The notes under the pieces: model-generated | Told to the model about the DNA's origin: nothing | What the model saw: the letters and a program-made list of their open reading frames with translations, nothing else | The model's database searches: none | NCBI GenBank assembly: GCA_050732995.1 | Contig: JBOHSA010000095.1 | Coordinates: 1,471 to 65,470, forward strand | DNA: 64,000 bases | Direction: 5' to 3' | From: Gemmatimonadales bacterium | GTDB taxonomy: Bacteria > Gemmatimonadota > Gemmatimonadetes > Gemmatimonadales > GWC2-71-9 | Translations under genes and position numbers: made by a program | Shown: piece by piece, positions 13,122 through 63,090 of the stretch | How the letters are laid out: every line of letters starts with the position of its first letter | How positions within the stretch are numbered: position 1 is the first letter of the stretch

Positions 13122-14764
13122 CCCGTTTCCTTTCTCGATTCCTTTGGCCGCCGGCGCACGGCCTGCACCACCCGGTCGCGCCCCCCATGTTTCGCTTCGT
13201 ACAGAGCCTCATCCGCGCAGGCGAGAAGCGCCTCCGGCAGGTCGGCATGGTCGGGGAACTGCGCCACGCCGATACTCAATGTCACCTTCCCGCCCCGGAA
13301 CACTTCGTCGGCGAGGCTTGCGCGCAACCGTTCGCCGGCCTGCACCGCGGCGTCCGCGTCGGTCTCGGGCATCAGCACCACGAACTCTTCGCCCCCGAAA
13401 CGCGCCACGCAGTCGACGTCGCGCGTCGTCTCGCGAAGAATGGCCCCGACGCGCCGCAACACCTCGTCCCCCGCCAGGTGGCCGAAGCGATCGTTGTACT
13501 GCTTGAAGTAGTCGATGTCGGCGATCACCAGCGCCAAGGCATGGCGGTTGCGCCGGGCGCGCCGCACTTCGCTCTCGAGCGTCTCCATCAGCTGCCGGCG
13601 GTTGAACAGCCCCGTCAACCCGTCCGTCACCGAGAGCCGTTCCAGCCCCTGCCGTCCCTCGCGCAGCCGGGCCACCATGTCGTTGAACACCGTCGTCAAA
13701 GCCCCGATCTCGCCGCCCGTCACGACGGGGAGGTCGACGGCGAGATCGCCGGCGGCCACTTTCGCCGCTCCCTGGGTCAGGCGGACGACCGGCCGGACGA
13801 TGAGCAGGCCGAGCACGTACGCGACGAGCCCCAGGACGACGAGCAGCGCCGCGAGGATCAGGATCGTCAGGTTCCGCAGCCGCAGCACCTGGCGATAGGC
13901 CTCCGCCGTGGGCATTTCGGCCAGCACGGCCCATCCGAGGCGCGGCGCACGCGCCAGCGTGCCGACCGTCCGGATGCCCTCGAAGTTTGTGTACTCCACG
14001 GCCTCTCCGACCAGGTTGAGCAGCTCCGGAGACTCGGCCGTGCGCCCGGCGGACAGGGGTTCGACGCTGCCGGCCCCGAACCCGGTGATCAGCGCTCCCT
14101 CCCCCGTCAGGACGTGGACGTGGCCCGCCGCGCGACGCGACAAGCCTGAGAGCGCGTCCTCGACGGTGCGGAGATTGACCTGGGCCGACAGCGCTCCCAA
14201 TAGCCGCCCGCTCGGGGCTCGGATCGGCACGGCGACCGGGACGACCGGTCGCCCCAGGGCACTGTCCCGATGCACCGCGCCCACGACCGGGTGGTCCGCC
14301 CGGACCTGCGTCAGCCAGTCGGAGGGAAAGCCGGTCATCCCCTCGCCTCCTCCCCCGCCCCCCGCGCCCCCCCCGCCCCCCCCGCGCCGCCGGCCGGCGC
14401 TCGTCGCCACGACTCGCCCCGCCGGGTCGATGACCAGGAGCTCCTCGTAGTCGGCGAACCGGTGCTTGACGGAATTGAGGTAGTCCGTGAGCCGAGCGAG
14501 CGTTTGGGCCCGCCCCCCGCGCTCCAGGTTGTCGGTCACCTCGACGGACCGGGCGAATACCCGGAGATCCGAGACCCGCTCCTTGAGCCAGATATCGAGC
14601 TCGCGGGCCGCCTGAGAGCTCACGCCGCGCAGCTGCTCGGTGAGTCGTTCCGTCAGCGCGCGCTTGTTCTCCCGGTAGGACAGCCAGGAGGTGGCCAGCG
14701 AAGGGATCAGCGCGGACAGCACGGCAAAGGCCAAGATCTTGTTGCGGATGCTGTCCAGCCGCAT
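13118..14764 (-). CDS. Cache-HAMP-GGDEF diguanylate cyclase
   Basis: ORF 13118..14848; the internal start MRLDSIRNKILAFAVLSALIPSL (14764) is typical for this architecture. It has a periplasmic sensor region, a second TM, a HAMP domain, and DGLTGLFNRR...RFGGEEFVVLMP. The sensor region carries a GGGGGGAGGGGGGEG insert encoded at 14341-14400. Confidence 0.8.
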   Translation of the reverse strand: MRLDSIRNKILAFAVLSALIPSLATSWLSYRENKRALTERLTEQLRGVSSQAARELDIWLKERVSDLRVFARSVEVTDNLERGGRAQTLARLTDYLNSVKHRFADYEELLVIDPAGRVVATSAGRRRGGGGGGAGGGGGGEGMTGFPSDWLTQVRADHPVVGAVHRDSALGRPVVPVAVPIRAPSGRLLGALSAQVNLRTVEDALSGLSRRAAGHVHVLTGEGALITGFGAGSVEPLSAGRTAESPELLNLVGEAVEYTNFEGIRTVGTLARAPRLGWAVLAEMPTAEAYRQVLRLRNLTILILAALLVVLGLVAYVLGLLIVRPVVRLTQGAAKVAAGDLAVDLPVVTGGEIGALTTVFNDMVARLREGRQGLERLSVTDGLTGLFNRRQLMETLESEVRRARRNRHALALVIADIDYFKQYNDRFGHLAGDEVLRRVGAILRETTRDVDCVARFGGEEFVVLMPETDADAAVQAGERLRASLADEVFRGGKVTLSIGVAQFPDHADLPEALLACADEALYEAKHGGRDRVVQAVRRRPKESRKETG

Positions 14765-19847: not shown

Positions 19848-21244
19848 CGCTCGTGCTGGTGGTAGACGACGTCCCGGCGTTGGCCGAGCAATACGCCTAC
19901 GACCTCCGGCGACTGGGGGGCGGGCCGGGGGGACCCGGGTTCGAGACGCTGGTGGCCGGCGGGGGCCGGGAAGCGCTCGAAACGCTCGCGCGCGAGGCCG
20001 TCGACTGCGTGATCCTCGACCTCGAGATGCCGGGGGTGGACGGCTTCGAGGTGCTGCGCACGATCCGGCAGCGCGGGCTCGACGTCCCGGTGATCGTGTA
20101 CACCGGCACGGGCAGTTACGACCGGTGTGTCCAGGCGGTCCGCCAGGGCGCCGACGGGTTCATCGACAAAGCGGAACCGATGGAGCGCGTGCTTCGGGAG
20201 ATCGAGGTCGCGCTCGAGCGGCGCCGGCTCACTTCCGAAGTGCGGGCGCTCCGCTCGCGACTCGGCGTGGACACTTCGCTCGTCGGGGAGAGCGAGCCGA
20301 TGCGGCGGCTGCGGGAAGCGATCGCGCGCGTGGCTTCCGTACCCAGCCCCGTCCTGATTGAAGGGGAGACCGGTACGGGCAAGGAGCTGGTCGCACGCGA
20401 TCTCCACCGGTTGGGGGGAGGGGGGGGGGCGGCACGTGAGCGCGAGCCGTTCATCGCTCTGAACTGCGCAGCGCTGCCGGAGAACCTGGTCGAGAGCGAG
20501 CTGTTCGGGCACGAGCGCGGCGCGTTCACCGGCGCCGCACAGCTGCGCCAGGGCGCCTTCGAAGCCGCGGGTCGGGGCACCCTGTTCCTCGACGAGATCG
20601 GCGAGCTGCCGGGGCCGGCGCAGGCGAAGCTGCTCCGCGTCCTCGAGACCAATGAGGTCACGCGGGTCGGCGGCACGCGGATCGTCGCCGTCCGCGCGCG
20701 CGTCCTTGCGGCGACCAACCGCCGCCTCGAGGCGGAGGTCGCCGCGGGACGGTTTCGCCAGGACCTGTTCTTCCGGCTGAACGTGCACGTCCTGCGGGTC
20801 CCCCCGCTCCGGGAGCGGCTGTCCGACGTTCCCGCGCTCGCCGAGCACTTGCTCGCGGCGCTGTGCCGGCGGCTGGGCGTCCGTCCGCGGCGCCTCGCCC
20901 CCGACGCGATCGAGCTATTGATGGGCTACGATTGGCCCAAGAACAACGTCCGCGAGCTGCGCAACATGCTCGAGCGGATGATCATCGCCTCGGATGTCGA
21001 GACCTTGACCGCGGCGGACGTGCCGCCGGAAGTCCGGGACAGCGGGCCCCCTCCCCCGCCCGGCGGCCCCGGCGTGGGCGCTCGGACCTTTCTCGAGCAA
21101 AAGGCCGAAGCCGAGCGCCGGATCCTCGTCGCCGCGCTCGAGCGCAACGACTGGCACATCAGCCGCACGGCCCGCGAGCTGGGTCTCGCCGACCACTCGA
21201 GCCTGCTCAAGATCATGCGGAGGCACGGCATCGGTCGCGATTGA
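19844..21244 (+). CDS. sigma-54-dependent response regulator (NtrC-family bacterial enhancer-binding protein)
   Basis: ATGA overlap with the kinase stop. REC domain (VLVVDDV...CVILDLEMPGVDG), AAA+ domain (GETGTGKELVA, ESELFGHERGAFTGA = GAFTGA motif), and a C-terminal Fis-type HTH (ISRTARELGLADHSSLLKIMRRHGI). Confidence 0.92.
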   Translation: MTLVLVVDDVPALAEQYAYDLRRLGGGPGGPGFETLVAGGGREALETLAREAVDCVILDLEMPGVDGFEVLRTIRQRGLDVPVIVYTGTGSYDRCVQAVRQGADGFIDKAEPMERVLREIEVALERRRLTSEVRALRSRLGVDTSLVGESEPMRRLREAIARVASVPSPVLIEGETGTGKELVARDLHRLGGGGGAAREREPFIALNCAALPENLVESELFGHERGAFTGAAQLRQGAFEAAGRGTLFLDEIGELPGPAQAKLLRVLETNEVTRVGGTRIVAVRARVLAATNRRLEAEVAAGRFRQDLFFRLNVHVLRVPPLRERLSDVPALAEHLLAALCRRLGVRPRRLAPDAIELLMGYDWPKNNVRELRNMLERMIIASDVETLTAADVPPEVRDSGPPPPPGGPGVGARTFLEQKAEAERRILVAALERNDWHISRTARELGLADHSSLLKIMRRHGIGRD

Positions 21245-30751: not shown

Positions 30752-30756
30752 ACGAA

Positions 30757-30789
30757 GGGGGAGTGTCGGCCCTCTCCCCCCCCCTTTTT
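30757..30789 (+). terminator. possible intrinsic terminator between convergent genes
   Basis: GGGGGAG (30757-63) pairs with CTCCCCC (30774-80) across a 10-nt loop, followed by CCCC TTTTT. A weaker hairpin than the one at 22495. Confidence 0.45.
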
Positions 30790-30811
30790 CCGCCTGGCGT
30801 TCCTTTCGGCC

Positions 30812-34431: not shown

Positions 34432-35562
34432 CTATCCCGCCGCCACCAGGCGCGCCACCGCCCGCGCGTCCCGGTTGATGTTGTGCAATCCGCCCGTGGC
34501 GTCGTAGTTGTGTCCCACGAAATACAGGCCGGGATGGTCGGCGCTTGCGACCCGGCCGTGGCGCAAGGCGAAGCCACGCGCATCCTTACGAATCAGGTCC
34601 CCGAACGGGGCCAGGGCCGGCGCGAAGCCGGTAGCGAGAATCACGTCGTCGAAGGCCGCGTGAGAGCCGTCGGTGAATGTGGCGCCCGTCTCGCTGAATT
34701 CGGCAACGCCGGGTGCCACGGTCACGAGCCCGGCCCGAATGGCGTCGACTAGATGGAACCCGATGACGGGGATGGCTTCGAGCGGGCTGTGGGCGGGGCG
34801 GGGGAGCACCGGCGGACCGCGTCGGAGCTCGGTGACCTTCCCCACAGCGGCCACGAGGAGCTCCTGGAGCGGTCGGGGCAGCTTGCGCACCCAGTAGGAC
34901 ACGTACTGGATGGGGACGCCGAACAGGGTCAGCGGAACCACGTTGGCACCAGAGCGCACCGCGATCGTGACTCGCGCGCCCGCGCGCGCCAGCTCGCTCC
35001 CGATCTCCGCACCTGAGTTTCCGACGCCGACCACCAGCACGCGGCGGCCGACGTACGGCTCGGGCTGCCGGTACTCGATGCTGTGCGCGATTCGGCCACG
35101 GAACCGCTCGCGGCCCACAAAGGGCGGGACTTGTGGGTTCGCGATGATGCCCGTGGCGACGACGAGCGCCCGCGCCGTGAACGACCGCCCCCCCCCTCCC
35201 TCCACTCCCCCCCGGCCGCCATGCACCGTCACGACCCAGCGACCGTGGTCGAACCGGACGCCGGAGACCGGGCTCCCGGTTTCCACCGGCAGGGCGAACC
35301 GGTCCGCGTAGTCACGGAGATACTCCCAGAACGCGTGGCGCGGAATGAACACAGGATAGGAGCGCGGAAAGGGGAGACCGGGGAGGCTCGACATGCGCTT
35401 GCCCGTGTGCAGCCGGAGGCTGTGGTACAGGTGGGCCCAGCTATGGCCGACCTGGTCGCCGCGCTCGAGCACGCGATGGGCGATCCCGCGCCGCTCGAGC
35501 TGCTGCGATGTCGCCAGCCCGGCCGGTCCGGCGCCCAGGACGAGGACGTCGCTTTCGCTCAT
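34432..35562 (-). CDS. flavin-containing monooxygenase-like FAD/NAD(P)-binding oxidoreductase
   Basis: ORF 34432..35589 trimmed to ATG 35562. DVLVLGAGPAGLA (FAD GxGxxG) and VLVVGVGNSGAEI (NADPH site). It carries a GGRGGVEGGGGRS insert. Confidence 0.8.
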   Translation of the reverse strand: MSESDVLVLGAGPAGLATSQQLERRGIAHRVLERGDQVGHSWAHLYHSLRLHTGKRMSSLPGLPFPRSYPVFIPRHAFWEYLRDYADRFALPVETGSPVSGVRFDHGRWVVTVHGGRGGVEGGGGRSFTARALVVATGIIANPQVPPFVGRERFRGRIAHSIEYRQPEPYVGRRVLVVGVGNSGAEIGSELARAGARVTIAVRSGANVVPLTLFGVPIQYVSYWVRKLPRPLQELLVAAVGKVTELRRGPPVLPRPAHSPLEAIPVIGFHLVDAIRAGLVTVAPGVAEFSETGATFTDGSHAAFDDVILATGFAPALAPFGDLIRKDARGFALRHGRVASADHPGLYFVGHNYDATGGLHNINRDARAVARLVAAG

Positions 35563-40160: not shown

Positions 40161-40308
40161 ATGGACAGCCAGGCGCGTAGGCGCACAGGCGCGTAGCGGG
40201 TTGGAGGATCCAGTTCACAGGAATTCCTAAACGCTGCTTCCTGGTACCCGCTGTGCGCCTTCGCGCTTACGCGCCTGACTGATAGCTTCTTGTCCTATCC
40301 TTGTACTG

Positions 40309-41374: not shown

Positions 41375-43815
41375 ATGCGAGACCTGGTTGATGCCATCCT
41401 CGCGAGCGCCGTCCTGGGCGGCGGCGTCGCGCTGCTCGTGGACACGGCCGTGAAGGCCACGCTGCTCGTGCTCCTCGCTGCCGCGCTGACCGCCGTGTTG
41501 CGGCGCTCCGCCGCCTCGTTGCGGCACTTTGTCTGGTCGCTGACCGTCGCCGGCCTGGTGACGCTGCCGCTCGCGGCCCGGCTGTTGCCCGCCTGGAACG
41601 TCCCGCTGCTGCCCCGCTTCGTGCCCGCGTTCGACGCGGCGGCGGTGTCCGAGCCGCCGGCGCGACCTGCCATCGAGCAATCGCCGGCGGTCGCGACGCA
41701 AACGGCCCCCCCCCCTTCCCCCCTCCCGGTAGGGAAAGCAGTCGAGCTCGACGCGCCCGCGCCCGGCGCGTCCGGGGCGGAGCGGTTCCGGCTCAGCTTC
41801 GGGTGGACCGCCTGGGTCGTGCCGGTGTGGCTGAGCGGTGTGGCGCTGGTACTCGCCGGGATCGTGCTCGGGCTCGCGCGCTTGCGCTGGATCGCGCGCG
41901 CCGCCCGACCCGTGACGGACCCGGCGTGGGCGCGGCTGCTCGCCGAGCTGTCGCGCGAGATCGGAGTGTCGCGCCCCGTCACGCTATTGCGCAGCCCGGG
42001 GCCCGCGATGCCGATGACCTGGGGCGTCCGGCGGCCGGTCGTGCTCCTGCCGGCGGACGCCGACCGCTGGCCCGCGGATCGGCGCCGGGGCGTCCTGTTG
42101 CATGAGCTCGCCCACGTGCGGCGCCACGACGTCCTCACGCAGCTCGTCGCCCGGCTCGCCTGCGCCGTCTACTGGTTCCACCCGTTGGTTTGGGTCGCCG
42201 CCGCGCGGCTGCGCGTGGAGCGGGAACGCGCCTGCGACGATCAGGTCTTGCGCGCGGGCGCCCGGGCCTCGGAGTATGCGGGGCACCTACTCGAGATCGC
42301 GCGGTCGTTGCGCGTGGCGCCGGCGACCTCGCTGGCGAGCGTGGCGATGGCCCGGCCCTCTCAGCTCGCGACCCGGCTGCTGGACGTGCTCGACACGGGC
42401 CGGCGGCGGCACGGGGTGAGCCCGCGCACGATGGTCCCCGCGTGGCTCATCCTGGCGGCGGTCGTGCTGCCGCTGGCGGCCGCCGTTCCCTCACCGACAT
42501 CCGCCCCTCCCCCCGCTCCCCCCGCTCCCCCCTCCCCCCCCCCTCCCCCGGTGCCCCGACCGACCGGCTCCGGGAGGGAACCGAGCCCGCGGCCCTACTC
42601 TCGCTCGCGCCGTCCGCGCGGGCTGAGCGAGGCCGTCCCCGGGCCGCCGTGGAGGCGCCGCGGCCGGCGGCGTGGTCGCCGGACTCGCTGCGCGAGTGCG
42701 GCGGTGACCGGGTCAAGCGCAGCAGCACCAGCAGGACGGACAATGACGGCGCGGTCCAGCGGACCACCATCCGGACCCTGGTCGGACAGTGTGAGGTCCT
42801 GTTCCGCGCCGAGGGCAAGTTCACCTTCACCGCCGATTTCACCGACATCGCCACGGTCGCACGCGGCGGGGAAGTCATGGTCGAGGTGGATTACGGCCAC
42901 CGCGCGCGCCGGCTCGAGATCCGGCGCGGAGATGGCGCCGGCGGTCTCGAGCGCGAATACACGGTGGATCGCGCGGTCCGCCCCTTCGACGCCGAGGCCC
43001 GTGCCTGGCTGGCGGAGACGCTCACGTTTCTCCTGCGCCGCAGCGGCCTCTCCGCCGAGCAGCGGGCGCAGTGGATTCTCGAGCGCCGGGGGATCACCGG
43101 GCTCGTCGACGAGATTGCGCAGCTGCAGAGTGACTACGCACGGCGCCAGTACTATCAGACGGCCGTTGCGAGTGGCAAGCTCGATCCGGCCGGCTTCGAG
43201 CGCCTCGTCACGCGGGCGGGGCAGGAGATCGAAAGCGACTACGAGCTGGCCGAGCTGCTCATCGAAGTCGCTCGGCAGCAGCCGCTGACGGCGGGGCTGC
43301 AGGCCGGCTTCGTGGCCGCGGCCCGGACCATCGACTCGGACTACGAGCGGCGGCGGGTGCTCGACGTCGCGCTGGGGCGGCCCGGGCTCACGACCGAGGT
43401 GGCGGCCGGCATGCTCGGAGCGGCGGGGGAGATCGACTCCGACTACGAGCTCGCGGAGCTCTTGATCAAGCTCCAGCGCGCCCGCCCGATCGATGACGCC
43501 CTGCGGCCCGCCTACTTTACGGCGGTGAACACGATTCAGTCGGACTACGAGCATCGGCGCGTGCTCGGGGCGTTGCTGGACCAGCGGGAGCTCAGTGGCC
43601 CCGTGCTCGCGGCGACGCTGGAATCGGCGCGGGCGATCCGGTCCGACTTCGAGCTGGCGGAGCTGCTGGTCGCCGTGGCGCGGCGCCACCGTATCGACGC
43701 GAGCCTCCGCCCCGCGTTCGAGGAGGCCGCCAATACCATCGGCTCGAGCTACGAAAACGACCGCGTGATGGCGGCGCTGGCGCGGAGCCAGGGGCGCAGC
43801 CCCGAGCGCCAGTAA
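41375..43815 (+). pseudogene. BlaR1-like M56 peptidase/signal transducer with SDYE-repeat C-terminal domain, reading frame broken at a C-tract
   Basis: Frame A (41375 onward) gives TM helices and the M56 zinc motif LLHELAHVRRHD, up to ...AAVPSPTSAPPPAPPAPPSPPPPP. Beyond the C-rich tract 42501-42550 (which contains C10 at 42534-43), frame A turns Arg-rich nonsense. Frame B (ORF 42190..43815) carries the sensible continuation WSPDSLRECGGDRV...SDYELAELLI repeats. Adding one nucleotide in the tract would fuse the two frames. Confidence 0.65.
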
Positions 43816-43835: not shown

Positions 43836-46469
43836 ATGACGCGCTGGCCGATGTCCGCGGTGCTCCTCGCCGCGCTGGTCGTGCCAGGGTCGGCCGGCGG
43901 GCAGACCGCGCCGGCGCCACCGCCCCGCAAGCAGGCCCGCGCGCTGCGCCTCGACCGGGAAACGGTCCGGCTGGACGGCCGGCTGGACGAGGCCGCGTGG
44001 CGCCGGGCCGCGTGGATCTCGGATTTCGTCCAGAAAGAGCCGAACGAGGGCGCCGCCCCCACCGAGCGCACCGAGGTGGCCTTCTTCTACGACGCCGACG
44101 CGCTGTACGTGGGCGTGCGGGCCTATGCGGATGATCCGGCCAAGATCCAGGCCCCGCTGTCCCGGCGCGACAACACCGCCCAGGCGGAGCACGTCTGGAT
44201 CTCTCTCGACACGTACCTCGACCATCGCACGGCGTACTCGTTCGGCGTGACCGCGTCGGGCGTGCGGATGGACTTCTACCACGCCACCGACCGCGAGCAC
44301 AACGTAGACGGCCGGTTCGATCCGGTGTGGGAGGCCCGGGCGGCGATCGACTCGCTCGGCTGGACGGCCGAGCTGCGCATCCCGTTCTCCCAGCTCCGCT
44401 ACACCGCGAAGGACGCCCAGGTCTGGGGCCTTAACATCGATCGCTGGATTCCATCGCGGCGCGAGGACGTGTTCTGGATCCCCGTGCCCAAGAACGAAAC
44501 CGGCTGGGCCTCGCGGATGGGCGAGCTGCACGGGATCGAGCGGATCGCCCCCTCCCGCCGGCTGGAGCTGCTCCCCTACGCGGCGAGTAACGCGACGCTC
44601 ACCGGCGACCGCGATCCCGCGGACCCGTTCGACGACGGCCGGAACCTCGAGGCCCGTGCCGGCGCCGACATGAAGATGGGCGTCGGCCCCAACCTGACGC
44701 TCGATGCGACGGTGAACCCGGATTTCGGCCAGGTCGAGGCCGACCCCGCGATCGTCAACCTGTCGGCCTTCGAAGTCTTCTTCGACGAGCGCCGGCCGTT
44801 CTTCACGGAGGGGAGCCAGCTCTTCCCCTCCCGCTTTTTCTACACGCGCCGGGTGGGGGCCCGGCCGCGCGGCGCGCCGGTCGCGGACGACGACGACTAC
44901 GTGGACTATCCGGACGCCAGCACCATCCTCGGGGCCGCCAAGCTCACGGGGCGGCTGCGCTCGGGCACGTCGGTCGGCGTTCTCGCCGCGCTCACGGCCC
45001 GGGAGCGCGCCCGCGCCTACGACCCCACGACCGCGCGCGTCACGGAAACTGTGGTCGCGCCGGTCAGCGGGTTCGGCGCCCTGCGGACCCGACAGGAGAT
45101 CGGCGCCGACGCGTCGGTGGGCGGGACGCTCACCATGGTCCGCCGCGATCTCGCGGACGGCGACCCGCTCGCCGGGATCTACGCCCGCGAGGCGTACGGA
45201 GGCCGGCTGGACTGGAACCTGCGGTTCGGCCGGGACGCCTACGTGCTGGACGGGGACATCGGGTTTTCGCACGTCCGGGGCGACTCGAGCGTGTTGCTGC
45301 ACATTCAGGAATCGCCGGTCCATTACTTCCAGCGGCCGGATGCGGGCCACGTCGCGGTGGATTCGTCCCGGACCGCCCTCAGCGGCTATGTCGCGAGTCT
45401 CGCGTTCTCCAAGATCAGCGCTCGGCACTGGCTGTACGAGGTCAGCGTGGGCCGGGAATCACCCGGCTTCGAGCCTAACGATGCCGGCCGGCTCTCGAAC
45501 GCCGACGGGCAGAACGCGTTCGCCCAACTGCGGTACCGGGAGACGCAACCGGGCCAGACGTTCCACACCTACGAGCTGAGTTTCGAGACGGGTGGCGAGT
45601 GGAATTTCGGCAACGACCGGCAGTTCTACACCACGCGCTGGGACGCCAAGCTGACCTGGAAGAACTTCTGGGTGACGAACCTCACCTTCTGGATCGACCA
45701 CCCCTCGCAGAACCAAGCGCAGACCCGCGGCGGGCCCTCCATGGGCACGCCCCGCAGCCGGGTCGTGATCGCGCGACTGGGGAGTCGGCTCGGCGCGCGG
45801 ACGGCGTGGAACGGCCGGGGGTACTACGGGTGGGACGAGCTGGGCGGGGAGATCTACCGGCTGAGCGGCGGCCTGTCGGTGCGCCCCAGCACGCGCTGGC
45901 AGGTGTCGGTGGATCCGAACTACCTGCGCGTGATCGACCCGCGCCAGTACGTGGCCACGTTCGACTCGGGACCGGCGGCGACGTACGGCCGGCGTTACGT
46001 GTTCGCGTTCGTCGACCAGAGCGAGTTCCGGATCCCGATCCGGGCCAATTACACCCTCACCCCCGACCTGACGCTCGAGCTCTTCGCGGAGCCGTTCGCC
46101 GCGAGCGGCCGCTTCTACGGGTTCGGCGAGCTCGCGGCGCCCCGAACCACCCGGCTGCGCCGCTACGGCACCGATGGCACCACGATCGCGCGCGACCCCG
46201 CCGGGGACTACCTCGTGACCGACAACGGCGGCGCGGACACGCTCGCCATCGCCAACCCGGACTTCAACGTCCTGTCCTTCCGCAGCAACCTCGTGCTGCG
46301 CTGGGAGTGGCGCCCGGGGAGCACGCTGTTCCTCGTGTGGCAGCAAAATCGCCAGCACGACGACGCGCGCGGCGCGCACGTGGGGCCGGCCGATCTGATG
46401 GATTCGCTGCGGGCGACGGGGGACAACTTTCTGGCGATCAAAGCCAGCTACTGGATCCCGGTGCGGTAG
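43836..46469 (+). CDS. DUF5916/CBM9-like domain outer-membrane protein
   Basis: Signal peptide MTRWPMSAVLLAALVVPGSAGGQ. LDGRLDEAAWRRAAWISDFVQKEPNEGAAPTERTEVAFFYDADALYVG (CBM9-like), then VNPDFGQVEADPAIVNLSAFEVFFDERRPFFTEG and a long beta-rich C-terminus. This is the pattern I recall for DUF5916 proteins. Confidence 0.75.
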   Translation: MTRWPMSAVLLAALVVPGSAGGQTAPAPPPRKQARALRLDRETVRLDGRLDEAAWRRAAWISDFVQKEPNEGAAPTERTEVAFFYDADALYVGVRAYADDPAKIQAPLSRRDNTAQAEHVWISLDTYLDHRTAYSFGVTASGVRMDFYHATDREHNVDGRFDPVWEARAAIDSLGWTAELRIPFSQLRYTAKDAQVWGLNIDRWIPSRREDVFWIPVPKNETGWASRMGELHGIERIAPSRRLELLPYAASNATLTGDRDPADPFDDGRNLEARAGADMKMGVGPNLTLDATVNPDFGQVEADPAIVNLSAFEVFFDERRPFFTEGSQLFPSRFFYTRRVGARPRGAPVADDDDYVDYPDASTILGAAKLTGRLRSGTSVGVLAALTARERARAYDPTTARVTETVVAPVSGFGALRTRQEIGADASVGGTLTMVRRDLADGDPLAGIYAREAYGGRLDWNLRFGRDAYVLDGDIGFSHVRGDSSVLLHIQESPVHYFQRPDAGHVAVDSSRTALSGYVASLAFSKISARHWLYEVSVGRESPGFEPNDAGRLSNADGQNAFAQLRYRETQPGQTFHTYELSFETGGEWNFGNDRQFYTTRWDAKLTWKNFWVTNLTFWIDHPSQNQAQTRGGPSMGTPRSRVVIARLGSRLGARTAWNGRGYYGWDELGGEIYRLSGGLSVRPSTRWQVSVDPNYLRVIDPRQYVATFDSGPAATYGRRYVFAFVDQSEFRIPIRANYTLTPDLTLELFAEPFAASGRFYGFGELAAPRTTRLRRYGTDGTTIARDPAGDYLVTDNGGADTLAIANPDFNVLSFRSNLVLRWEWRPGSTLFLVWQQNRQHDDARGAHVGPADLMDSLRATGDNFLAIKASYWIPVR

Positions 46470-46494
46470 GGGGGGGGGGGAGGGGGGGGGGAGG
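46469..46494 (+). repeat. G12-A-G10-A-GG tract between convergent genes
   Basis: Read directly. It begins at the last base of the TAG stop of the DUF5916 gene and ends 22 bp before the stop of the convergent ada-like gene. Confidence 0.9.
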
Positions 46495-46515: not shown

Positions 46516-47631
46516 TCAGGTCCGGTTTCCCGCTTCCAGGTCCAGCAGGGCTCGCTTGCGCTCGACTCCCCACCGATATCCCCCCGGCTCCCCGTCCTCC
46601 CGGACGACGCGATGGCACGGGATGACCAGGGCGGCGGGATTTCTCGCGCACGCCCGCGCCACCGCCCGGCTCGCGGTGGGAGTCCCGAGAGCCCGCGCCA
46701 CTGCCCCGTAGGAGCGGGTGCGGCCGTAGGGGATCTTGCGCAGCGCCTCCCAGACGCGGCGCTGGAACGCGGTGGCGCGCACGTCGAGCGGCAGCTCCAG
46801 TGGCGGCTCCCGGCCCGCGAGGTGCCGGAGGATGACCGCGACCGTCCGGGCCAGCCCGGCCGCGTCGCGCCGGATTTCCGCCGCCGGGAACTCGGCCTTG
46901 AGCTCGGCCGCGAGCTCCGCCGCGCCGTCGCCCAGCGCGACGCGGCAGATCCCGCGCGCCGTGGCGGCTACGAGCAACCGGCCCAGGGGGCGCGCGCAGG
47001 GCACGATCGCATACCCGATCCGCATCCCCCGTCCGCCGCGGCCATAGGTCGCGGGCGTCATGCCGAGTTGCGCGTCGGCGCGCTCGTACACCCGGCTGCC
47101 CGAGCCGTAGCCGGCGGCGTACACCGCCGGACTCACGCGCCGGCGCTCCCGCAGCTGGGTCTTGAGCCGGGTCAAGCGCCGCGCGTCCTTGTACTGGCTT
47201 GGCGTGATGCCGAGCACCCGGCGAAACACGCGCAGCAGGCGGTGCGGGCTGCAGCCCAGCCGCCGGCTGAGGCTCGCGAGTCGGGCGTTGGCGTCGGGGT
47301 GGGCGTCGAGCAGCCGACAGGCCTCCTGCACCAGGGCGACGGCAGGGTCCGCGCCGTTGCGCTGCTCGGGCCGGCAGCGCCGGCACGGCCGGAACCCGGC
47401 CAGCTCGGCCGCCGGCGGAGCGGGGAAGAAGGAGACCAGCGCCCGCCTGGGCCGCCGGCTCGGGCACGACGGCCGGCAGTAGATCCCGGTCGAGCGGACG
47501 GCGTACACGAAGGCGCCGTCGAACCGGCGGTCGCGACGCAGCACGATCCGCCAGGGCCGCTCGGACCCCAGCGCGGTCAAATCCGGGGCGGGATGCACAG
47601 GGGGAAACCTAGCGCGCCCCTCCCGCGCCAT
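46516..47631 (-). CDS. ada: bifunctional Ada-like protein (Zn-Cys methylphosphotriester acceptor + AraC HTH + O6-methylguanine-DNA methyltransferase)
   Basis: N-terminal Cys cluster (YCRPSCPSRRP...FRPCRRCRP), AraC-type HTH (LASLSRRLGCSPHRLLRVFRRVLGITPSQY), and a C-terminal MGMT active site VIPCHRVV. Confidence 0.88.
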   Translation of the reverse strand: MAREGRARFPPVHPAPDLTALGSERPWRIVLRRDRRFDGAFVYAVRSTGIYCRPSCPSRRPRRALVSFFPAPPAAELAGFRPCRRCRPEQRNGADPAVALVQEACRLLDAHPDANARLASLSRRLGCSPHRLLRVFRRVLGITPSQYKDARRLTRLKTQLRERRRVSPAVYAAGYGSGSRVYERADAQLGMTPATYGRGGRGMRIGYAIVPCARPLGRLLVAATARGICRVALGDGAAELAAELKAEFPAAEIRRDAAGLARTVAVILRHLAGREPPLELPLDVRATAFQRRVWEALRKIPYGRTRSYGAVARALGTPTASRAVARACARNPAALVIPCHRVVREDGEPGGYRWGVERKRALLDLEAGNRT

Positions 47632-54004: not shown

Positions 54005-54454
54005 ATGACCTCCTACGTGCGAGCGCGGTACGACTCCGGGGAAACCGATCCCCAAAGGGGGGGGGGAGGGCCAGCCGTATCGGAGCGCTCCCGCGGCGTC
54101 GCGCTCGCGCTCGGCTTCATCGGCGGCGTGTTCGGTCTGCACCGCTTCTACACGGGCAAGATCAAGAGCGGTCTCTTGATGATCTGCACGTTCGGCGGGC
54201 TCGGTTTGTGGTGGCTGTACGACATGATCCTGCTCGCCACGGGTGAGTTTCGGGACGCGGACGATCTCCCCTTGCGAAACTGGAACGTCCAGGAGCCGCG
54301 CGGGATGGCCCGCGCGGCCGACCGGCGCACGGACGAGCTGGAAGAGCGCTTGGACGCGCTGCAGGGGGAGGTCGCGGAGATGCAGGAGCGGTTGGACTTC
54401 ACGGAACGCATGCTGGCCCAGCAGCGTGACCGCGATCGTCTGTCGAAGGGGTAG
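54005..54454 (+). CDS. TM2-domain membrane protein with C-terminal coiled coil
   Basis: ORF 53912..54454 trimmed to ATG 54005. GVALALGFIGGVFGLHRFYTGKIKSGLLMICTFGGLGLWWLYDMILL is the TM2 signature. The C-terminal helix is LEERLDALQGEVAEMQERLDFTERMLAQQRDRD. Confidence 0.8.
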   Translation: MTSYVRARYDSGETDPQRGGGGPAVSERSRGVALALGFIGGVFGLHRFYTGKIKSGLLMICTFGGLGLWWLYDMILLATGEFRDADDLPLRNWNVQEPRGMARAADRRTDELEERLDALQGEVAEMQERLDFTERMLAQQRDRDRLSKG

Positions 54455-60502: not shown

Positions 60503-60931
60503 GTGCCGACGAGTCACGCCACGGCCGTGTGGGAAGGGAAGCTGCGCGACGGCAAGGGGAGCTTCAAAGCCGGCAGCGGCGCCTTCACCGGGCCGTATAC
60601 GTTCGCGACGCGTTTCGAGGGCGCGAAGGGGACGAACCCCGAGGAGCTGATCGCCGCCGCCGAAGCGGCGTGCTTCAGCATGGCCCTCTCCGCCGGTCTG
60701 GAAAAGGCCGGCAAGCCCGCCGCACGGGTCGAAACGCGGGCTGCCTGCACGCTGGAGATGGTCGGCGGCGCGCCCAAGATCACCCGCATCGACCTGACGG
60801 TGCGGGGCAGGGTGCCCGGGCTCGACCAGGCCGGGTTCCAGAAAGCGGCCGAAGAGGCCCAGACCGGCTGCCCGGTCTCCAAGGCACTCAAGGGCAACGT
60901 CGAGCTCACGCTCGACGCGAAACTGGAATGA
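60503..60931 (+). CDS. osmC: OsmC-family peroxiredoxin
   Basis: 142 aa. GTNPEELIAAAEAACFSMALS and the second Cys in TGCPVSKAL are typical of the OsmC subfamily. GTG start. Confidence 0.88.
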   Translation: MPTSHATAVWEGKLRDGKGSFKAGSGAFTGPYTFATRFEGAKGTNPEELIAAAEAACFSMALSAGLEKAGKPAARVETRAACTLEMVGGAPKITRIDLTVRGRVPGLDQAGFQKAAEEAQTGCPVSKALKGNVELTLDAKLE

Positions 60932-61365
60932 GCCGGCGGGGGGGAGGGGGGAGCGGGGAATGGGGAGTGGGGCTCGCGGTCGGACTCCTTGCGCTGGCGG
61001 CGTGCCGGATGGAGCGGGCGGCCACGGTGCGGATCGTGGAGCCGGCGGAAGGTGCGACGATCGTCGGGCCCAGCGTCCGGGTCGTGCTGCAAGTGACGGG
61101 AATGGAGCTCGCCCCCGCGTCGGAGCAACGCCCGGGGACGGTCCACCACCACCTGTTCCTCGACACCGAGCTCACCCCGCCGGACGATACGATCCCCGCG
61201 GGCGTGACCGGCATCATCCACCTCGGCCGCGCCCAGACGGAGTTCAGCTTCGACAGCGTGCCGCCGGGCCCCCACCGCGTGATCGCCTACCTCGCCGACC
61301 CCTGGCACGTGCCGGTCAAGCCGGTCGCGGTGGATACGGTACGGTTTGTGGTGACGAGACCCTGA
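60928..61365 (+). CDS. DUF4399-like periplasmic lipoprotein
   Basis: ATGA overlap with the osmC stop. Lipobox LALAAC. GTVHHHLFLDTEL...IIHLGRAQTEFSFDSVPPGPHRVIAYLADPWH matches my recollection of DUF4399. The N-terminal RRGGGGSGEWG is encoded by a G-tract. Confidence 0.65.
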   Translation: MSRRGGGGSGEWGVGLAVGLLALAACRMERAATVRIVEPAEGATIVGPSVRVVLQVTGMELAPASEQRPGTVHHHLFLDTELTPPDDTIPAGVTGIIHLGRAQTEFSFDSVPPGPHRVIAYLADPWHVPVKPVAVDTVRFVVTRP

Positions 61366-61366
61366 C

Positions 61367-61470
61367 GGGGAGGACGGGGAAGGACGGGGGGAAGACGGGG
61401 GGGGGACCTCCCCCGTCCTCCCCCGCCTTCCCCCGCCTTCCCCCGTCCTCTCCCGTCCTCTCCCGTCTCC
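61367..61470 (+). repeat. purine/pyrimidine-asymmetric decamer array forming a long imperfect inverted repeat
   Basis: Left arm: GGGGAGGAC GGGGAAGGAC GGGGGGAAGAC GGGGGGGGG (61367-61405). Right arm: six in-phase decamers CCCCGTCCTC CCCCGCCTTC CCCCGCCTTC CCCCGTCCTC TCCCGTCCTC TCCCGTCTCC (61411-61470). CCCCGTCCTC is the reverse complement of GAGGACGGGG. Intergenic, between the DUF4399 and DUF971 genes. Confidence 0.9.
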
Positions 61471-61480
61471 CATCCGCCCC

Positions 61481-61816
61481 ATGGACATTCCCATTCCCAA
61501 GCTGATTGGCCGCCAGGCGGCACGCGGCGACTTTCTGATCCGGTGGGATGAGGGCCACGAAGGCGTCTACCCCGCCCGGGTGTTGCGATTGGCGTGCCCG
61601 TGCGCCGAGTGCCGCGAAGAGATGACCGGACGCCGGCTGCTCGATGCGCGTCGGGTGCCGGACGACATCGATGGCGTGCGGGTGGAGCTGGTCGGCCGGT
61701 ACGGTATCCGCATCGACTGGAGCGACGGGCATCACACGGGGATCTACACCTACGAGATGTTGTACGAGATGTGTCCCTGTGCGAGTTGCTCAGCGGCGAA
61801 GCGACCGAGGGGCTAA
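61481..61816 (+). CDS. DUF971-family protein (gamma-butyrobetaine hydroxylase N-terminal-like zinc domain)
   Basis: 111 aa. FLIRWDEGHEGVYPARVLRLACPCAECREE...GIRIDWSDGHHTGIYTYEMLYEMCPC is the typical DUF971 pattern. Confidence 0.75.
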   Translation: MDIPIPKLIGRQAARGDFLIRWDEGHEGVYPARVLRLACPCAECREEMTGRRLLDARRVPDDIDGVRVELVGRYGIRIDWSDGHHTGIYTYEMLYEMCPCASCSAAKRPRG

Positions 61817-63090
61817 GTCCCTTCACCCCTGGGCCCCCCAGCCCTTCCCACCCGCTGCAGCAACGCCAGCCCCAAGACGAACAGCCCCCCCACGGCCAAC
61901 ACCGCCGCCCGCTGGTTGCCGCCGGTGGCGCGCGACACGGTGCCGAAGATCAGGGGTCCCAGCACGGCCGAGGACTTCCCGACCACCGCGTAGAATCCGA
62001 ACATCTCCGCTTCCTTGCCGTGCGGGATCAGGGACGCCATTAGCGCGCGGCTCGCGGCCTGTACCGTGCCGAGCTGTGTGCCCGCGACCACGGCCACGGC
62101 GTAGAACACGGTCTGGCTCCGGATCAGCGCGGCCGCGATCGCGACGCCCACCCAGACGGCGAGGCTCAGCGTGATCACCCGCTTGGGGCCCCAGCGGTCG
62201 GTCGGCCGGGCGAGGACGAGCGCGCCGACCAACGCGGAGACCTGGACCACGATGAACATGAGAATCAGCTGGGCCGTGCTGAAGCCGAGGGTCTTGGCGG
62301 CGTAGAGGCTCGCGAAATAGATCGTGGTCTCGACCCCGTCGATGTACACGAAATAGGCCGCGAGGAACCGGCGCAGCTCGCCCACGCCCAGCACGTCGCC
62401 CCAGATGCGCCGGAAGTGCGTGACGCCGTCGATCGCCGCGCGCCGCGCCGGCACGCCGGTCGGCGCGTCGGCGGGCATGACCCGGAAGATCGGCACGGAG
62501 AAGACCACGAGGAACAGCGCGACCATCAGCCAGGTCAGCTCGAACCGGCCCGCGTTGACGAGCGGCAGCGCCAGCAACAGCCCGACGGTGGACCCGGCGT
62601 AGCCGATGCCGTACCCGAGTCCCGAGACCTCTCCCCGGCGCTCGGGCGGCGCCACATCGGGGAGATAGGCGTTGTAGTAGACGATCCCGCCCTCGAACCC
62701 GACGTTGGCCAGCACGGCCAATACGAAACCCCAGAGGATCATGCCCGGCTGGATCGTGCTGAACAAGGTGACACTGAGGACGCAGAGATAGGTGAACGCG
62801 AACAGCATCCGCTTGCGGACGCCCGCCCGATCAGCCACCGCCCCCAGCACGGGCGAGGTGAGCGCCACGATGATCATCGACGCGGACACGACCCAGCCCC
62901 ACACCTGGTCGCCGCGCCCCGTTTCGTTCCCGACGATGTTCTGCGCGAAGTAGACGCTGAAGATCGTCGCGATGATCACCGCCGCGTAGGCGGAGTTCGC
63001 GAAATCGTAGAGACACCAGGCCAGGACTCGGCGGCGATCCAGAGCAGGACGGGGGAGGATGGGGGAGGACGGGGACGGGGCGTCGGGCAC
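61813..63090 (-). CDS. MFS transporter (UMF1/Atg22-like family)
   Basis: 425 aa, about 12 TM. The N-terminal RRVLAWCLYDFANSAYAAVIIATIFSVYF is characteristic of UMF1-type MFS. The Pro/Ser-rich N-terminus is encoded by GGGGGAGGAY decamers on the opposite strand. Confidence 0.82.
   Translation of the reverse strand: MPDAPSPSSPILPRPALDRRRVLAWCLYDFANSAYAAVIIATIFSVYFAQNIVGNETGRGDQVWGWVVSASMIIVALTSPVLGAVADRAGVRKRMLFAFTYLCVLSVTLFSTIQPGMILWGFVLAVLANVGFEGGIVYYNAYLPDVAPPERRGEVSGLGYGIGYAGSTVGLLLALPLVNAGRFELTWLMVALFLVVFSVPIFRVMPADAPTGVPARRAAIDGVTHFRRIWGDVLGVGELRRFLAAYFVYIDGVETTIYFASLYAAKTLGFSTAQLILMFIVVQVSALVGALVLARPTDRWGPKRVITLSLAVWVGVAIAAALIRSQTVFYAVAVVAGTQLGTVQAASRALMASLIPHGKEAEMFGFYAVVGKSSAVLGPLIFGTVSRATGGNQRAAVLAVGGLFVLGLALLQRVGRAGGPRGEGT

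Follow-up and report, generated by a model that had tools for sequence, protein, structure and literature searches.

The DUF4399 and DUF971 genes of a soil Gemmatimonadales bacterium are separated by an array of 10-nt repeats that is predicted to fold, almost in its entirety, into one long GC hairpin. With a probability of roughly 0.55, we read this array as a non-coding, lineage-specific hairpin built out of repeats, which originated through slippage and inverted duplication, has no dedicated function, and locally breaks the coupling of DUF971 to DUF4399. Arrays of G5 decamers (unit GGGGGAGGAC and variants), of which this is one, recur across Gemmatimonadales as a class, either one-armed or as hairpins in which a G-rich arm is followed by a C-rich one. 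The class is a little-noticed kind of repeat in this order, present also in frame inside ordinary genes. For the array's own genome, the analysis covered the window, that is, the whole 64-kb stretch of DNA (64,000 nt), which holds two arrays with the decamer unit, one of them within a gene. The features referred to below are as follows.

60928..61365, plus strand: DUF4399 lipoprotein gene (Pfam), stop codon TGA at 61363-61365
61367..61405, plus strand: G-rich arm, GGGGAGGAC / GGGGAAGGAC / GGGGGGAAGAC / G9, that is, 3.4 units plus the G9 run
61407..61471, plus strand: C-rich arm, 6.6 decamers with consensus CCTCCCCCGT in exact 10-nt phase
61364..61457, no strand assigned: main predicted hairpin, about 45 bp with a few 1-nt bulges, loop near 61408-61414
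61458..61480, plus strand: C-rich tail, mostly unpaired, running up to the DUF971 ATG
61481..61816, plus strand: DUF971 / GBBH-like_N gene (Pfam), 111 aa, intact
61813..63090, minus strand: MFS (UMF1/Atg22-like) transporter gene, GTG start at 63090, convergent with DUF971
63046..63080, minus strand: second decamer array, CCCCGTCCCCGTCCTCCCCCATCCTCCCCCGTCCT, encoding MFS residues 4-15 (APSPSSPILPRP)

Re-reading positions 61367-61470 returned a sequence identical to the one described in the first-pass annotation, and the six pyrimidine decamers in exact 10-bp phase reported there were confirmed by Tandem Repeats Finder (61407-61471: period 10, 6.6 copies, 87% matches) and by a repeat search that placed six copies at start-to-start spacings of 10, 10, 10, 10 and 10 nt. 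The G-rich side (61364-61402) has a period of 10-11 with about 3.4 copies, and its arm contains Shine-Dalgarno-like GGAGG cores. Across the window, the pattern GARGRYGGGGGARGRYGGGG (two decamers, up to 3 mismatches) was matched 13 times against 0.87 expected, a count that none of 100 shuffles reached, and 8 of these 13 matches fall in the two arrays. Unlike a CRISPR array, with its 23-55 nt repeats and unique spacers, the units are contiguous and 10 nt long with no spacers between them. The C-arm exceeds the G-arm in length, which leaves most of the tail unpaired; the tail contains neither a Shine-Dalgarno-like purine stretch nor a sigma-70-like promoter. Searching the window with Rfam gave nothing at gathering thresholds, and at relaxed thresholds the only matches were to generic GC-rich miRNA-precursor hairpin models, far under their cut-offs. 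We rejected a peptide-coding role for the array, across which the DUF971 frame is open without a start codon before 61481.

The predicted RNA fold of the region is a single hairpin with an MFE of -84.9 kcal/mol (z -4.3; none of 200 shuffles as stable), and the corresponding DNA fold is predicted at -43.5 kcal/mol (z -3.9). The stem begins within the DUF4399 stop codon, and an outer 5-bp helix (61356-60/61465-69) extends into the final codons of that gene. It had previously been noted that about 18 bp at the centre were nearly complementary and that a hairpin or cruciform was possible. Both observations stand (61387-61404 and 61407-61424 are 89% complementary over 18 nt), and the folding predictions, which support the structure strongly, take it over nearly the entire array rather than the central 18 bp alone, with 37-nt arms that are 76% complementary. 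The arms could pair in several registers offset by 10 nt; as each arm is a tandem repeat, pairing survives the gain or loss of units. Among 2555 windows of 130 nt (mean -56, sd 9, in a stretch that is 71% GC), the array hairpin ranked second in energy. We dropped raw MFE as a test of uniqueness, as other GC-rich windows fold equally well.

The hairpin occupies a junction that is elsewhere tight. Pfam supports the names first given to the flanking genes, assigning DUF4399 and GBBH-like_N, the latter being the DUF971 family. In every relative with the junction the two genes lie 0-8 nt apart or overlap, the closest relative with a readable junction being 75% identical in DUF971. The spacer is 8 nt in L001 and L002 and about 3-5 nt in L119-L134, the genes overlap as TGATG in L204, and on contig P0005, where the order DUF4399-DUF971-MFS is that of the window, they occupy gene coordinates 749-1192 and 1193-1522. 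These spacings show the array, at the level of sequence comparison, to be a derived, lineage-specific insertion and not a conserved element, one that accounts for the 115-nt separation of two genes translationally coupled in all relatives. No further contig was recovered in an exact-protein look-up with the DUF971 protein and the representative of its 100% cluster. The first-pass annotation had offered to dismiss the array as an incidental low-complexity expansion should it be unique in the genome and absent from close relatives. One part of that description fits, the array being missing at this locus in all available relatives, but the repeat type itself recurs in many Gemmatimonadetes genomes.

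Another way to view the insertion is through its likely effect on the M28-OsmC-DUF4399-DUF971 transcript, in which it would place a G:C stem of about 45 bp reaching from the DUF4399 stop codon to 23 nt before the DUF971 ATG. Such a stem would break the ancestral translational coupling of DUF971 to DUF4399, may stall terminating ribosomes in the manner of REPs within 15 nt of a stop codon, and could impede RNA polymerase or 3' exonucleases, so that DUF971 expression would be reduced relative to DUF4399 but not abolished. We reason in this way because the DUF971 ORF is intact and has no promoter-like site or Shine-Dalgarno sequence upstream. The array would therefore predict changed DUF971 expression in this bacterium. 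For REPs, location within 15 nt of the stop codon is associated with ribosome stalling and lowered translation according to Liang et al. 2015, as summarised in PMC12306157, and REPs near a stop codon also protect upstream mRNA (PMC12306157).

We then consider the wider repeat class. The decamer GGGGGAGGAC is present in at least nine other Gemmatimonadetes MAGs, as single arrays and as hairpins; in a genome-collection scan, two exact decamers were found at 12 or more loci from at least nine Gemmatimonadetes MAGs among the 114 matches listed. Five further two-armed copies were identified (two in L019 and one each in L021, L039 and L065), with predicted folds of -83 to -98 kcal/mol, and all five have the G-arm 5' and the C-arm 3', the same polarity as the window array. 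Arm units, arm lengths and loops vary among the six two-armed copies, which are low-complexity and not orthologous, while the decamer and the architecture are common to all. Two-armed copies lie in frame within an alpha/beta-hydrolase gene and an AAA+ gene, where a bacilliredoxin gene is cut short at its 3' end, and, interrupted by an IS3-family element, in a promoter region between divergent genes. One-armed arrays occupy linkers of phosphomannomutase, thiolase and ATP synthase gamma, and in the latter two the array takes the place of a loop and lengthens the protein by only 3 aa net. In-frame residence in coding genes, which is the hallmark of RPEs, extends to the second array of the window, the L021 and L039 hairpins, the L005, L012, L013 and L096 arrays and the hydrolase orthologues, and the decamer is free of stop codons in all six frames. 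The heterogeneity of these contexts argues against one dedicated role. Similar (GGGGGARGRY)n arrays were seen in cyanobacteria, actinomycetes, Planctomycetota, Verrucomicrobiota and one Ignavibacteria MAG, and those outside Gemmatimonadetes and cyanobacteria are mostly one-armed. A literature search for the decamer strings returned primers and human sequences only, and one for Gemmatimonadetes repeat elements returned nothing relevant.

The alpha/beta-hydrolase has roughly 1,500 orthologues, and those compared offer a view of how such hairpins change. The peptide encoded by the hairpin is present in 23 of 28 orthologues, the other five being without some or all of the G-arm and loop, and C-arm length changes in 9-nt (TSP) steps. 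The insert in L021 was sized by alignment of orthologues, a PDB comparison being too distant. A short allele retains the C-rich tract only, and the G-arm of the filled alleles is the reverse complement of that tract; because the short allele keeps its C-arm, local duplication or deletion fits better than excision. Decay in L207 shows no compensating change. In the origin that we propose, replication slippage would create and resize the decamer arrays, and inverted duplication of a G- or C-rich tract, by fold-back or template switch, would make the second arm. The resulting array is most likely functionless, selfish or neutral DNA of the kind represented by REP and RPE elements. That the hairpin has persisted for long in the hydrolase orthologues could, however, be a sign of selection rather than neutrality.

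The second array of the window (Tandem Repeats Finder, 63046-63080: period 10, 2.9 copies) had been described as a related decamer array 1.6 kb from the first and in the same orientation. The array is real and has its G on the same strand, but it lies in the MFS coding region and not in a spacer. It adds 11 residues (33 nt), in frame, to the N-terminus by comparison with an 84% relative, from which it is missing, and is shared, with the reading frame kept, by the 90%-identical relative L199, the two copies being inherited with point substitutions. The first-pass annotation had suggested that the two arrays bracket the DUF971 and MFS genes; as the second is translated as the MFS N-terminus, common to L199 and absent at 84%, this idea is unsupported. 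We also discarded the possibility that the arrays delimit a DUF971-MFS cassette, the 82-84% relatives having neither DUF971 nor a matching array pair. The L199 contig stops before the first array, about 75 nt short of the region, and carries a different repeat-built hairpin between convergent gene ends. A tblastn of the MFS protein against the first-collected loci found no homologue.

The window array is similar to REP and RPE elements without belonging to either. MIRUs, the mycobacterial interspersed repetitive units, are minisatellites of 40-100 bp units whose small ORFs overlap the stop and start codons on either side. Like them, the window array is a tandem-repeat array in the intercistronic spacer of an operon whose stop and start codons are adjacent or overlapping in relatives; it differs in its 10-nt unit, its two-armed palindromic form and an open frame without a start codon. 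In common with the REPs and BIMEs of Enterobacteria and Pseudomonas, it is a GC-rich imperfect palindrome in an operon spacer, begins within 15 nt of the upstream stop, and has dispersed sister copies, one of them interrupted by an IS element. However, REPs are palindromes of about 20-40 nt with a GTAG-type head, whereas the array is 104 nt, some three times REP length, is composed of tandem 10-nt units with no GTAG head at either end, and has copies inside ORFs, where REPs by definition do not occur. High copy number within one genome and an associated RAYT (TnpA_REP) transposase are further marks of REPs. RPEs are palindromic, lie in frame within protein genes and are translated (PMC10969869). 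Members of the present class are likewise palindromic and about 100 nt long, lie in frame in loops or linkers of unrelated housekeeping genes, are translated, and are vertically inherited among orthologues. They differ from RPEs in that the arms are low-complexity tandem repeats with no unique consensus, arrays grow or shrink by repeat units, neither TIRs nor TSDs were observed, and some arrays replace a loop with almost no gain in length; in addition, the window copy is itself intergenic. Palindromic repeats within protein-coding genes are known from few lineages, the main example being Rickettsia with its RPEs; a high-GC soil phylum would join them through GC hairpins built of repeats that tolerate the gain and loss of units, lack stops in all six frames and persist in conserved enzymes.

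Could the hairpin instead be a dedicated terminator or attenuator, a T-less "I-shaped" or factor-assisted structure favoured by selection because it stops or attenuates transcription of OsmC-DUF4399 ahead of DUF971? We think this improbable. A very stable GC hairpin that begins at a stop codon does recall the I-shaped terminators proposed in high-GC bacteria, and T-run terminators occur in the window at chance level (24 found against about 19 expected), so that the lineage may use other signals. The one clear canonical terminator of the window (30753-30795) has the same G-arm-then-C-arm polarity, the L199 hairpin stands at convergent gene ends, and G-arrays begin at stop codons in L053, in L003 and at 46468 of the window. 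However, the 3' flank (CCTCTCCCGTCTCCCATCCGCCCC) has no T-run and the terminator scan was blank here; thus the array is not a canonical intrinsic terminator, as had been concluded at the outset, and its stem of about 45 bp over 61364-61457 far exceeds that of any known terminator, intrinsic terminators having stems of about 5-14 bp and loops of 3-8 nt. Moreover, DUF971 is an intact gene with no promoter-like site of its own, and efficient termination ahead of it would leave it silent. All relatives lack the element at this junction, and stopping transcription would do harm or serve no purpose at the sites of its sister copies, which are ORFs and a divergent promoter region.

It is similarly doubtful that a hairpin-recognising transposase or nuclease mobilises the array in trans, as it would a non-autonomous element of the MITE, REP or RPE-like kind. 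The same decamer and two-armed architecture do recur at unrelated loci in several genomes, the loops of L021 and L039 are similar within one MAG, and one copy sits at the breakpoint of a gene truncation. REPs are known IS targets and are often struck, as one copy here was by the IS3-family element. The copies in frame in ORFs also recall Rickettsia palindromic elements (PMC10969869). Yet no direct (target-site) duplication flanks the window array, L021 or L065, and whereas a MITE has TIRs and target-site duplications, here the whole element is an inverted repeat with no conserved termini beyond its low-complexity arms. Copies also differ in unit sequence, arm length and loop, the thiolase and ATP synthase gamma arrays replace a loop (+3 aa net) rather than adding a discrete insert, and the short hydrolase allele keeps its C-arm. 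Finally, the occurrence of G5-decamer arrays in unrelated phyla points to a general mutational process.

A decamer shared across species and a uniform G-then-C polarity are, however, not obviously predicted by random slippage, and could point to a templated or enzyme-driven process; the polarity in particular is a concrete clue to the origin of bacterial inverted repeats. On a more speculative reading, to which we give little weight, Gemmatimonadales, and perhaps some cyanobacteria, would carry an undescribed class of self-propagating hairpins with G5-decamer arms of fixed polarity, actively made and colonising spacers, promoters and genes. Each G-rich strand would run 5' to 3' toward the centre. 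A dedicated enzyme might produce this, or broken DNA whose 3' ends are extended, on a template or by fold-back, and then joined, much as in head-to-head telomere fusions. The targets would be spacers close to stop codons, promoters, and in-frame loops of housekeeping proteins, and the window array would be a young intergenic member of an RPE-like phenomenon outside Rickettsia.

We consider it quite unlikely that the array acts at the level of DNA, as a G-quadruplex/i-motif or cruciform switch, or as a helically phased protein-binding array, controlling local transcription or replication. The 10-bp phasing would put the G-tracts on one helical face, and the G4 structures initially proposed find a basis in motifs on both strands (plus, 61367-61405, with four G-tracts of at least four bases; minus, 61410-61480, with six G-tracts in the C-rich arm), a motif of at least four G-tracts of three or more bases with loops of up to 7 nt denoting sequence potential only. 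G5N5 is a canonical G4 unit, as in G4-prone minisatellites (for example, eukaryotic CEB1-type) and bacterial G-rich short tandem repeats, which the array also resembles in changing length by units. Taken alone, the arms give G4 folds of -24 and -42 kcal/mol (RNA parameters), and the minus-strand RNA gains a G4 when G4 is allowed; the plus-strand RNA, however, keeps the hairpin. The full complement in the duplex competes with G4, and in contrast to such minisatellites the array has a complementary arm opposite, so that a hairpin dominates the structure prediction. A 10-nt period is also expected from non-coding slippage, arrays in ORFs shift to 9-nt or 30-nt steps, the element is not conserved at this locus, and neither a partner gene nor a conserved motif in the flanks was seen. 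The strict purine/pyrimidine asymmetry initially described, and the triplex (H-DNA) it was thought to permit, did not hold: each unit has one base of the opposite class, so that the arms are 90-91% pure, and the longest pure runs are 10 nt in the G-arm and 9 nt in the C-arm. H-DNA calls for an uninterrupted homopurine-homopyrimidine mirror repeat of about 15 nt or more, and the locus is missing from the list of runs of at least 15 nt; with no homopurine run above 10 nt and an interruption each 10 nt, H-DNA appears unlikely from the sequence. The window as a whole is G4-rich, with 31 motifs.

Least probable is an assembly artefact, a spurious or mis-sized low-complexity join. The contig is known from a single MAG, its exact proteins were found on no other contig, and the close relative L199 ends about 75 nt short. 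On the other hand, synteny across DUF4399 and DUF971 is conserved and correctly carried on by the flanks, the arms do not form an exact palindrome, being imperfect copies, the 104-nt array fits inside single reads, and equivalent hairpins occur in many independent assemblies (NCBI, JGI, ENA, Logan).

Annotators of MAGs would need to recognise elements of this class, which appear as Gly/Arg-rich and Pro/Ser-rich low-complexity inserts and as spurious ORFs, and which may contribute to MAG contig breaks. An opposite-strand ORF at 60514-61500, which overlaps DUF4399, was itself rejected as spurious. The DUF4399 gene has an ATG that overlaps the OsmC stop and encodes a LLALAAC lipobox, and a G-tract near its start encodes the N-terminal residues RRGGGGSGEWG.

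The window comes from a Gemmatimonadales MAG, in which the decamer array at 61367-61470 (array 1) has a G-rich arm (G-arm, 61367-61405) and a C-rich arm (C-arm, 61407-61471).

Genes around array 1, in order
M28 peptidase gene, first in the local order, followed by OsmC
OsmC gene, between the M28 peptidase and DUF4399 genes
60928-61365, DUF4399 lipoprotein gene, directly before array 1
61481-61816, DUF971/GBBH-like_N gene, directly after array 1
61813-63090, MFS/Atg22-like transporter gene, on the strand opposite to DUF971
GIY-YIG gene, beyond the MFS gene and before SURF1
SURF1, an ORF running past the window end, named from the SURF1 at the same position in relatives L199 and L200

The first-pass annotation had transcribed the array exactly, and its 10-bp phasing of the pyrimidine decamers was borne out by a repeat search, which returned six in-register copies (spacing 10,10,10,10,10). 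For 61407-61471, Tandem Repeats Finder gave period 10 with 6.6 copies and 87% matches; for 61364-61402 it gave a 10-11-nt unit repeated about 3.4 times. The two halves can pair in fourteen alternative inverted-repeat registers, the best having 37-nt arms (76%), 24-nt arms (88%) or the central 18-nt arms (89%). A degenerate two-decamer pattern matched the window 13 times against 0.87 expected, a count reached by 0/100 shuffles, and 8 of these matches fall in array 1 and a second array (array 2) in the MFS gene. The predicted + strand RNA forms a single long hairpin (61364-61457) with an outer helix (61356-60/61465-69) and an MFE of -84.9 kcal/mol (z = -4.3), and none of the shuffles folded as well; the - strand RNA gave -93.3 kcal/mol, and DNA parameters -43.5 kcal/mol (z -3.9). 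Among 2555 130-nt windows of this 71% GC sequence (mean -56 ± 9 kcal/mol) the hairpin ranks 2nd, its energy being extreme yet not unique. The observation itself stood and its interpretation did so in part: the purine/pyrimidine asymmetry, described as strict, amounts to arms that are 90-91% pure with longest uninterrupted runs of 10 and 9 nt, and the proposed triplex (H-DNA) is unlikely.

The hairpin starts within the DUF4399 stop codon, which is separated from the DUF971 ATG by a 115-nt spacer. The 23 nt immediately 5' of this ATG are C-rich and lack any Shine-Dalgarno-like stretch; a sigma-70-like promoter for DUF971 was likewise not detected. In every relative with a readable junction the two genes nearly touch: 8 nt separate them in L001/L002, about 3-5 nt do so in sixteen metagenome loci (65-69% identity), they overlap as TGATG in L204, and they are adjacent (coordinates 1192 and 1193) in the P0005 contig, whose gene order, DUF4399-DUF971-MFS, is that of the window. 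From these junctions, array 1 is derived, an insertion that has separated two genes coupled in the ancestral state. DUF971 lies between DUF4399 and MFS in the window, L199 and the P0005 contig, and is absent from the closest MFS relatives at 82-84% (L200, L202 and L203); compared with the window and the P0005 contig, these three show loss or gain of DUF971 at the exact array position. After the DUF4399 stop, L200 carries a 28-nt G-rich stretch and L202 an unrelated palindromic repeat; within the clade, this is a position where small repeats accumulate. L014, L053 and L202 share a recurrent palindromic repeat with the sequence GTCATCCCGAGCGRAGCGAGGGATC, beside decamer arrays or at the DUF4399 3' end, which looks to be one more small dispersed element of soil bacteria. 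Other repeats were seen nearby in relatives. L199 has a different repeat-built hairpin at 3050-3150, (GGGAGCA)n facing (CTGCTCC)n heptamers, between convergent MFS/DUF971 stops. L003 has a (GGGKAGC)x7.7 array overlapping the DUF971 stop codon (8122-8175), followed at 8230-8470 by a ~120-nt palindromic element in two tandem copies; the arms of this element consist of purine-rich octamer arrays (CACGGAGACACGAAGGACACGGAGG...) opposite their complements, around a conserved loop.

Besides array 1, five more two-armed copies were found in Gemmatimonadetes.

Two-armed copies in other Gemmatimonadetes loci
L019, near 1-115
L019, 2222-2319
L021, 3272-3356, in frame inside an alpha/beta-hydrolase gene
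L039, 2261-2346, in frame inside an AAA+ gene
L065, arms split by an IS3-family element, between divergent gene starts

All five place the G-arm 5' and the C-arm 3', with folding energies of -83 to -98 kcal/mol. The L065 element (5011-6222; HTH_Tnp_1 orfA plus rve orfB, inverted ends GCCCCGRTTTKGTGGACAC) sits in the hairpin loop in another Gemmatimonadales MAG, and removing it in silico restores a hairpin of -98.5 kcal/mol. The second L019 copy begins 2 nt past the stop of one, convergent, gene and marks a truncation point in another, a bacilliredoxin-family gene (PF06491; 2216-2629, - strand) that matches only profile positions 1-99 of 136, since the last 37 positions give way to 31 residues encoded by the hairpin.

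Our scan for GGGGARGRYGGGGGARGRYGGGG, with one genome per species, gave at least 114 loci. Among the matches listed, 12 loci come from 9 Gemmatimonadetes MAGs, 12 from one Ignavibacteria MAG with the unit (GGGGGAAGAT)n, about a dozen from Oscillatoriales-type cyanobacteria, and the remainder mostly from actinomycetes, Planctomycetota and Verrucomicrobiota; most of the arrays listed are one-armed, and the three C-then-G arrays there are short and from other phyla. The Ignavibacteria MAG (50% GC, labelled Ignavibacteria UBA2333; L030, L049, L051, L073, L082, L084, L089, L097, L104, L109, L115, L117) has many such arrays at contig ends and may be unusually rich in this repeat. Three cyanobacterial loci (L007, L070, L100) carry long head-to-head arrays whose arms have non-identical units, for example (TAGGGGAGA)n facing (ATCCTCCCC)n, with the G-then-C polarity of the Gemmatimonadetes hairpins; Laspinema arrays often have a GTAGTAACGACTTCAGTCGTT hairpin after them.

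Neither the decamer nor its common variants contain a stop codon in any of six frames, which is why arrays survive within genes. In phosphomannomutase (at one and the same site in two MAGs) and in thiolase, one-armed arrays sit in frame in the linkers between domains, and in ATP synthase gamma one sits in frame in a loop. Set against solved homologues, thiolase and the gamma subunit each have the array in place of a loop and are only 3 residues longer on balance. Of the 28 L021 hydrolase orthologues sampled, 23 have the hairpin-coded peptide (EVGGGRGRLGEV...SNLPQPPPTSP) and five are without some or all of the G-arm and loop, and the C-arm varies in length by TSP (9-nt) steps. At the DNA level, two filled alleles were compared with a short one, which retains the C-rich tract alone; the reverse complement of this tract forms the G-arm of the filled alleles. 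The G-arm of L207 has decayed without compensation. The 9-nt or 30-nt steps by which in-gene arrays change set them apart from array 1, whose strict 10-nt period fits its non-coding position.

Array 2 (63046-63080, - strand) had been read as bracketing DUF971 and MFS together with array 1, which we could not support. It is not intergenic: it lies inside the MFS coding region, downstream of the sole available in-frame start (GTG at 63090), and specifies residues 4-15 of MPDAPSPSSPILPRPALDRRR. In L199, which is 90% identical, the homologous array keeps the frame and differs by several substitutions (MTAPPPLSSPVLHPPALDRRR), and the N-terminus of L200/L201 (84%), MSAPLFDRRR, is 33 nt shorter, so that array 2 is an in-frame insert that is translated and inherited vertically.

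Array 1 fits a class of slippage-prone G5-decamer arrays able to acquire an inverted copy. The simplest route would be a fold-back or template-switch duplication adding the inverted arm, giving a hairpin whose pairing withstands gain or loss of units. The contexts vary, relatives lack the array at this locus, and the decay in L207 is uncompensated; these three points speak against a single dedicated function for the family, which in this respect is much like REP and RPE elements. Array 1 most resembles REPs in position and structure, and its class most resembles RPEs in gene tolerance. Array 1 fails the defining features of both, as it does those of MIRUs, canonical terminators and CRISPR arrays, and it matches no Rfam family. 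It belongs, as a variant, among palindromic or tandem repeat elements. We came across no account of decamer-array hairpins from Gemmatimonadetes in the literature that could be searched. Alone, array 1 is a moderately interesting locus; it is of more interest as an entry point to a repeat class found both in spacers and in housekeeping genes of a phylum that has been little studied.

A true mobile element is suggested by the recurrence of the repeat type, its in-frame residence in genes (compare RPEs, PMC10969869), the IS-struck L065 copy and the L019 copy at a truncation breakpoint, but target-site duplications and conserved termini are missing, and no two of the six two-armed copies compared are identical. 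The polarity is uniformly G-then-C and many species have one decamer in common, two observations that leave room for an active, possibly break-associated or enzyme-driven process generating the hairpins, which we consider improbable. G4, i-motif or protein-array roles are permitted by the sequence, although nothing specific supports them. A dedicated terminator might be entertained where T-run terminators occur at chance frequency overall, as in the window, but is disfavoured: array 1 has no U-tract and is not conserved, DUF971 depends on read-through, and sister copies lie in ORFs and promoter regions. An assembly artefact is unlikely: synteny is correct, the arms are imperfect, and many independent assemblies contain equivalent hairpins.

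Locally, where relatives have a coupled junction of 0-8 nt, the window has a predicted ~45-bp G:C stem starting in the stop codon, a change that would hardly be neutral. REPs ≤15 nt from a stop codon stall ribosomes and reduce translation (Liang et al. 2015, as summarised in PMC12306157). By analogy with REPs, from which we infer all effects on expression, the hairpin would uncouple DUF971 from DUF4399, may stall terminating ribosomes and could impede RNA polymerase or 3' exonucleases, together lowering DUF971 output. The block is probably partial, because DUF971 is intact and has no visible promoter.

G- or C-tract array loci number 7 in the 64-kb window against 2 in about 110 kb of relatives. 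A (GGGAGGGGG)x4.8 array (580-622) lies inside a 73-nt G4 motif (550-622) in the spacer that separates an Nramp-family gene (-) from a divergent ECF sigma factor gene (+, probable start near 760). The (CTCCCCCCG)x4.8 array at 42504-42549 encodes a Pro-rich linker in a BlaR1/M56 peptidase gene; two long ORFs in different frames (41375-43288 and 42190-43815) overlap there, which suggests a frameshift, slippage-prone site or assembly error at the C-runs. The TAG stop of a DUF5916/CBM9 gene (43836-46469) is where a G12-A-G10-AGG tract (46468-46494) begins; the tract lies within the 46-nt spacer separating this gene from a convergent Ada-type methyltransferase/AraC gene (46516-47631).

Further G-/C-tract runs in the window
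4709-4736
7880-7925
14339-14388
20413-20429
35188-35203
54054-54070
60938-60972, in the DUF4399 signal peptide

Several of these are translated as runs of Gly or Pro within loops or at the termini of ordinary proteins, the tract-bearing proteins including a sigma-54 activator, a flavin monooxygenase, a GGDEF protein (C-terminus) and DUF4399 (signal peptide), and one immediately precedes a start codon. Only one clear canonical intrinsic terminator was seen in the window, GGGGGAG-loop-CTCTCCCCCCCCC then TTTTT (30753-30795); it follows a + strand stop codon and was missed by a simple scan. A long imperfect palindrome (40166-40281; 61-nt arms, 74% complementary) occupies a spacer of comparatively high AT content that precedes an ORF with its start near 40330.
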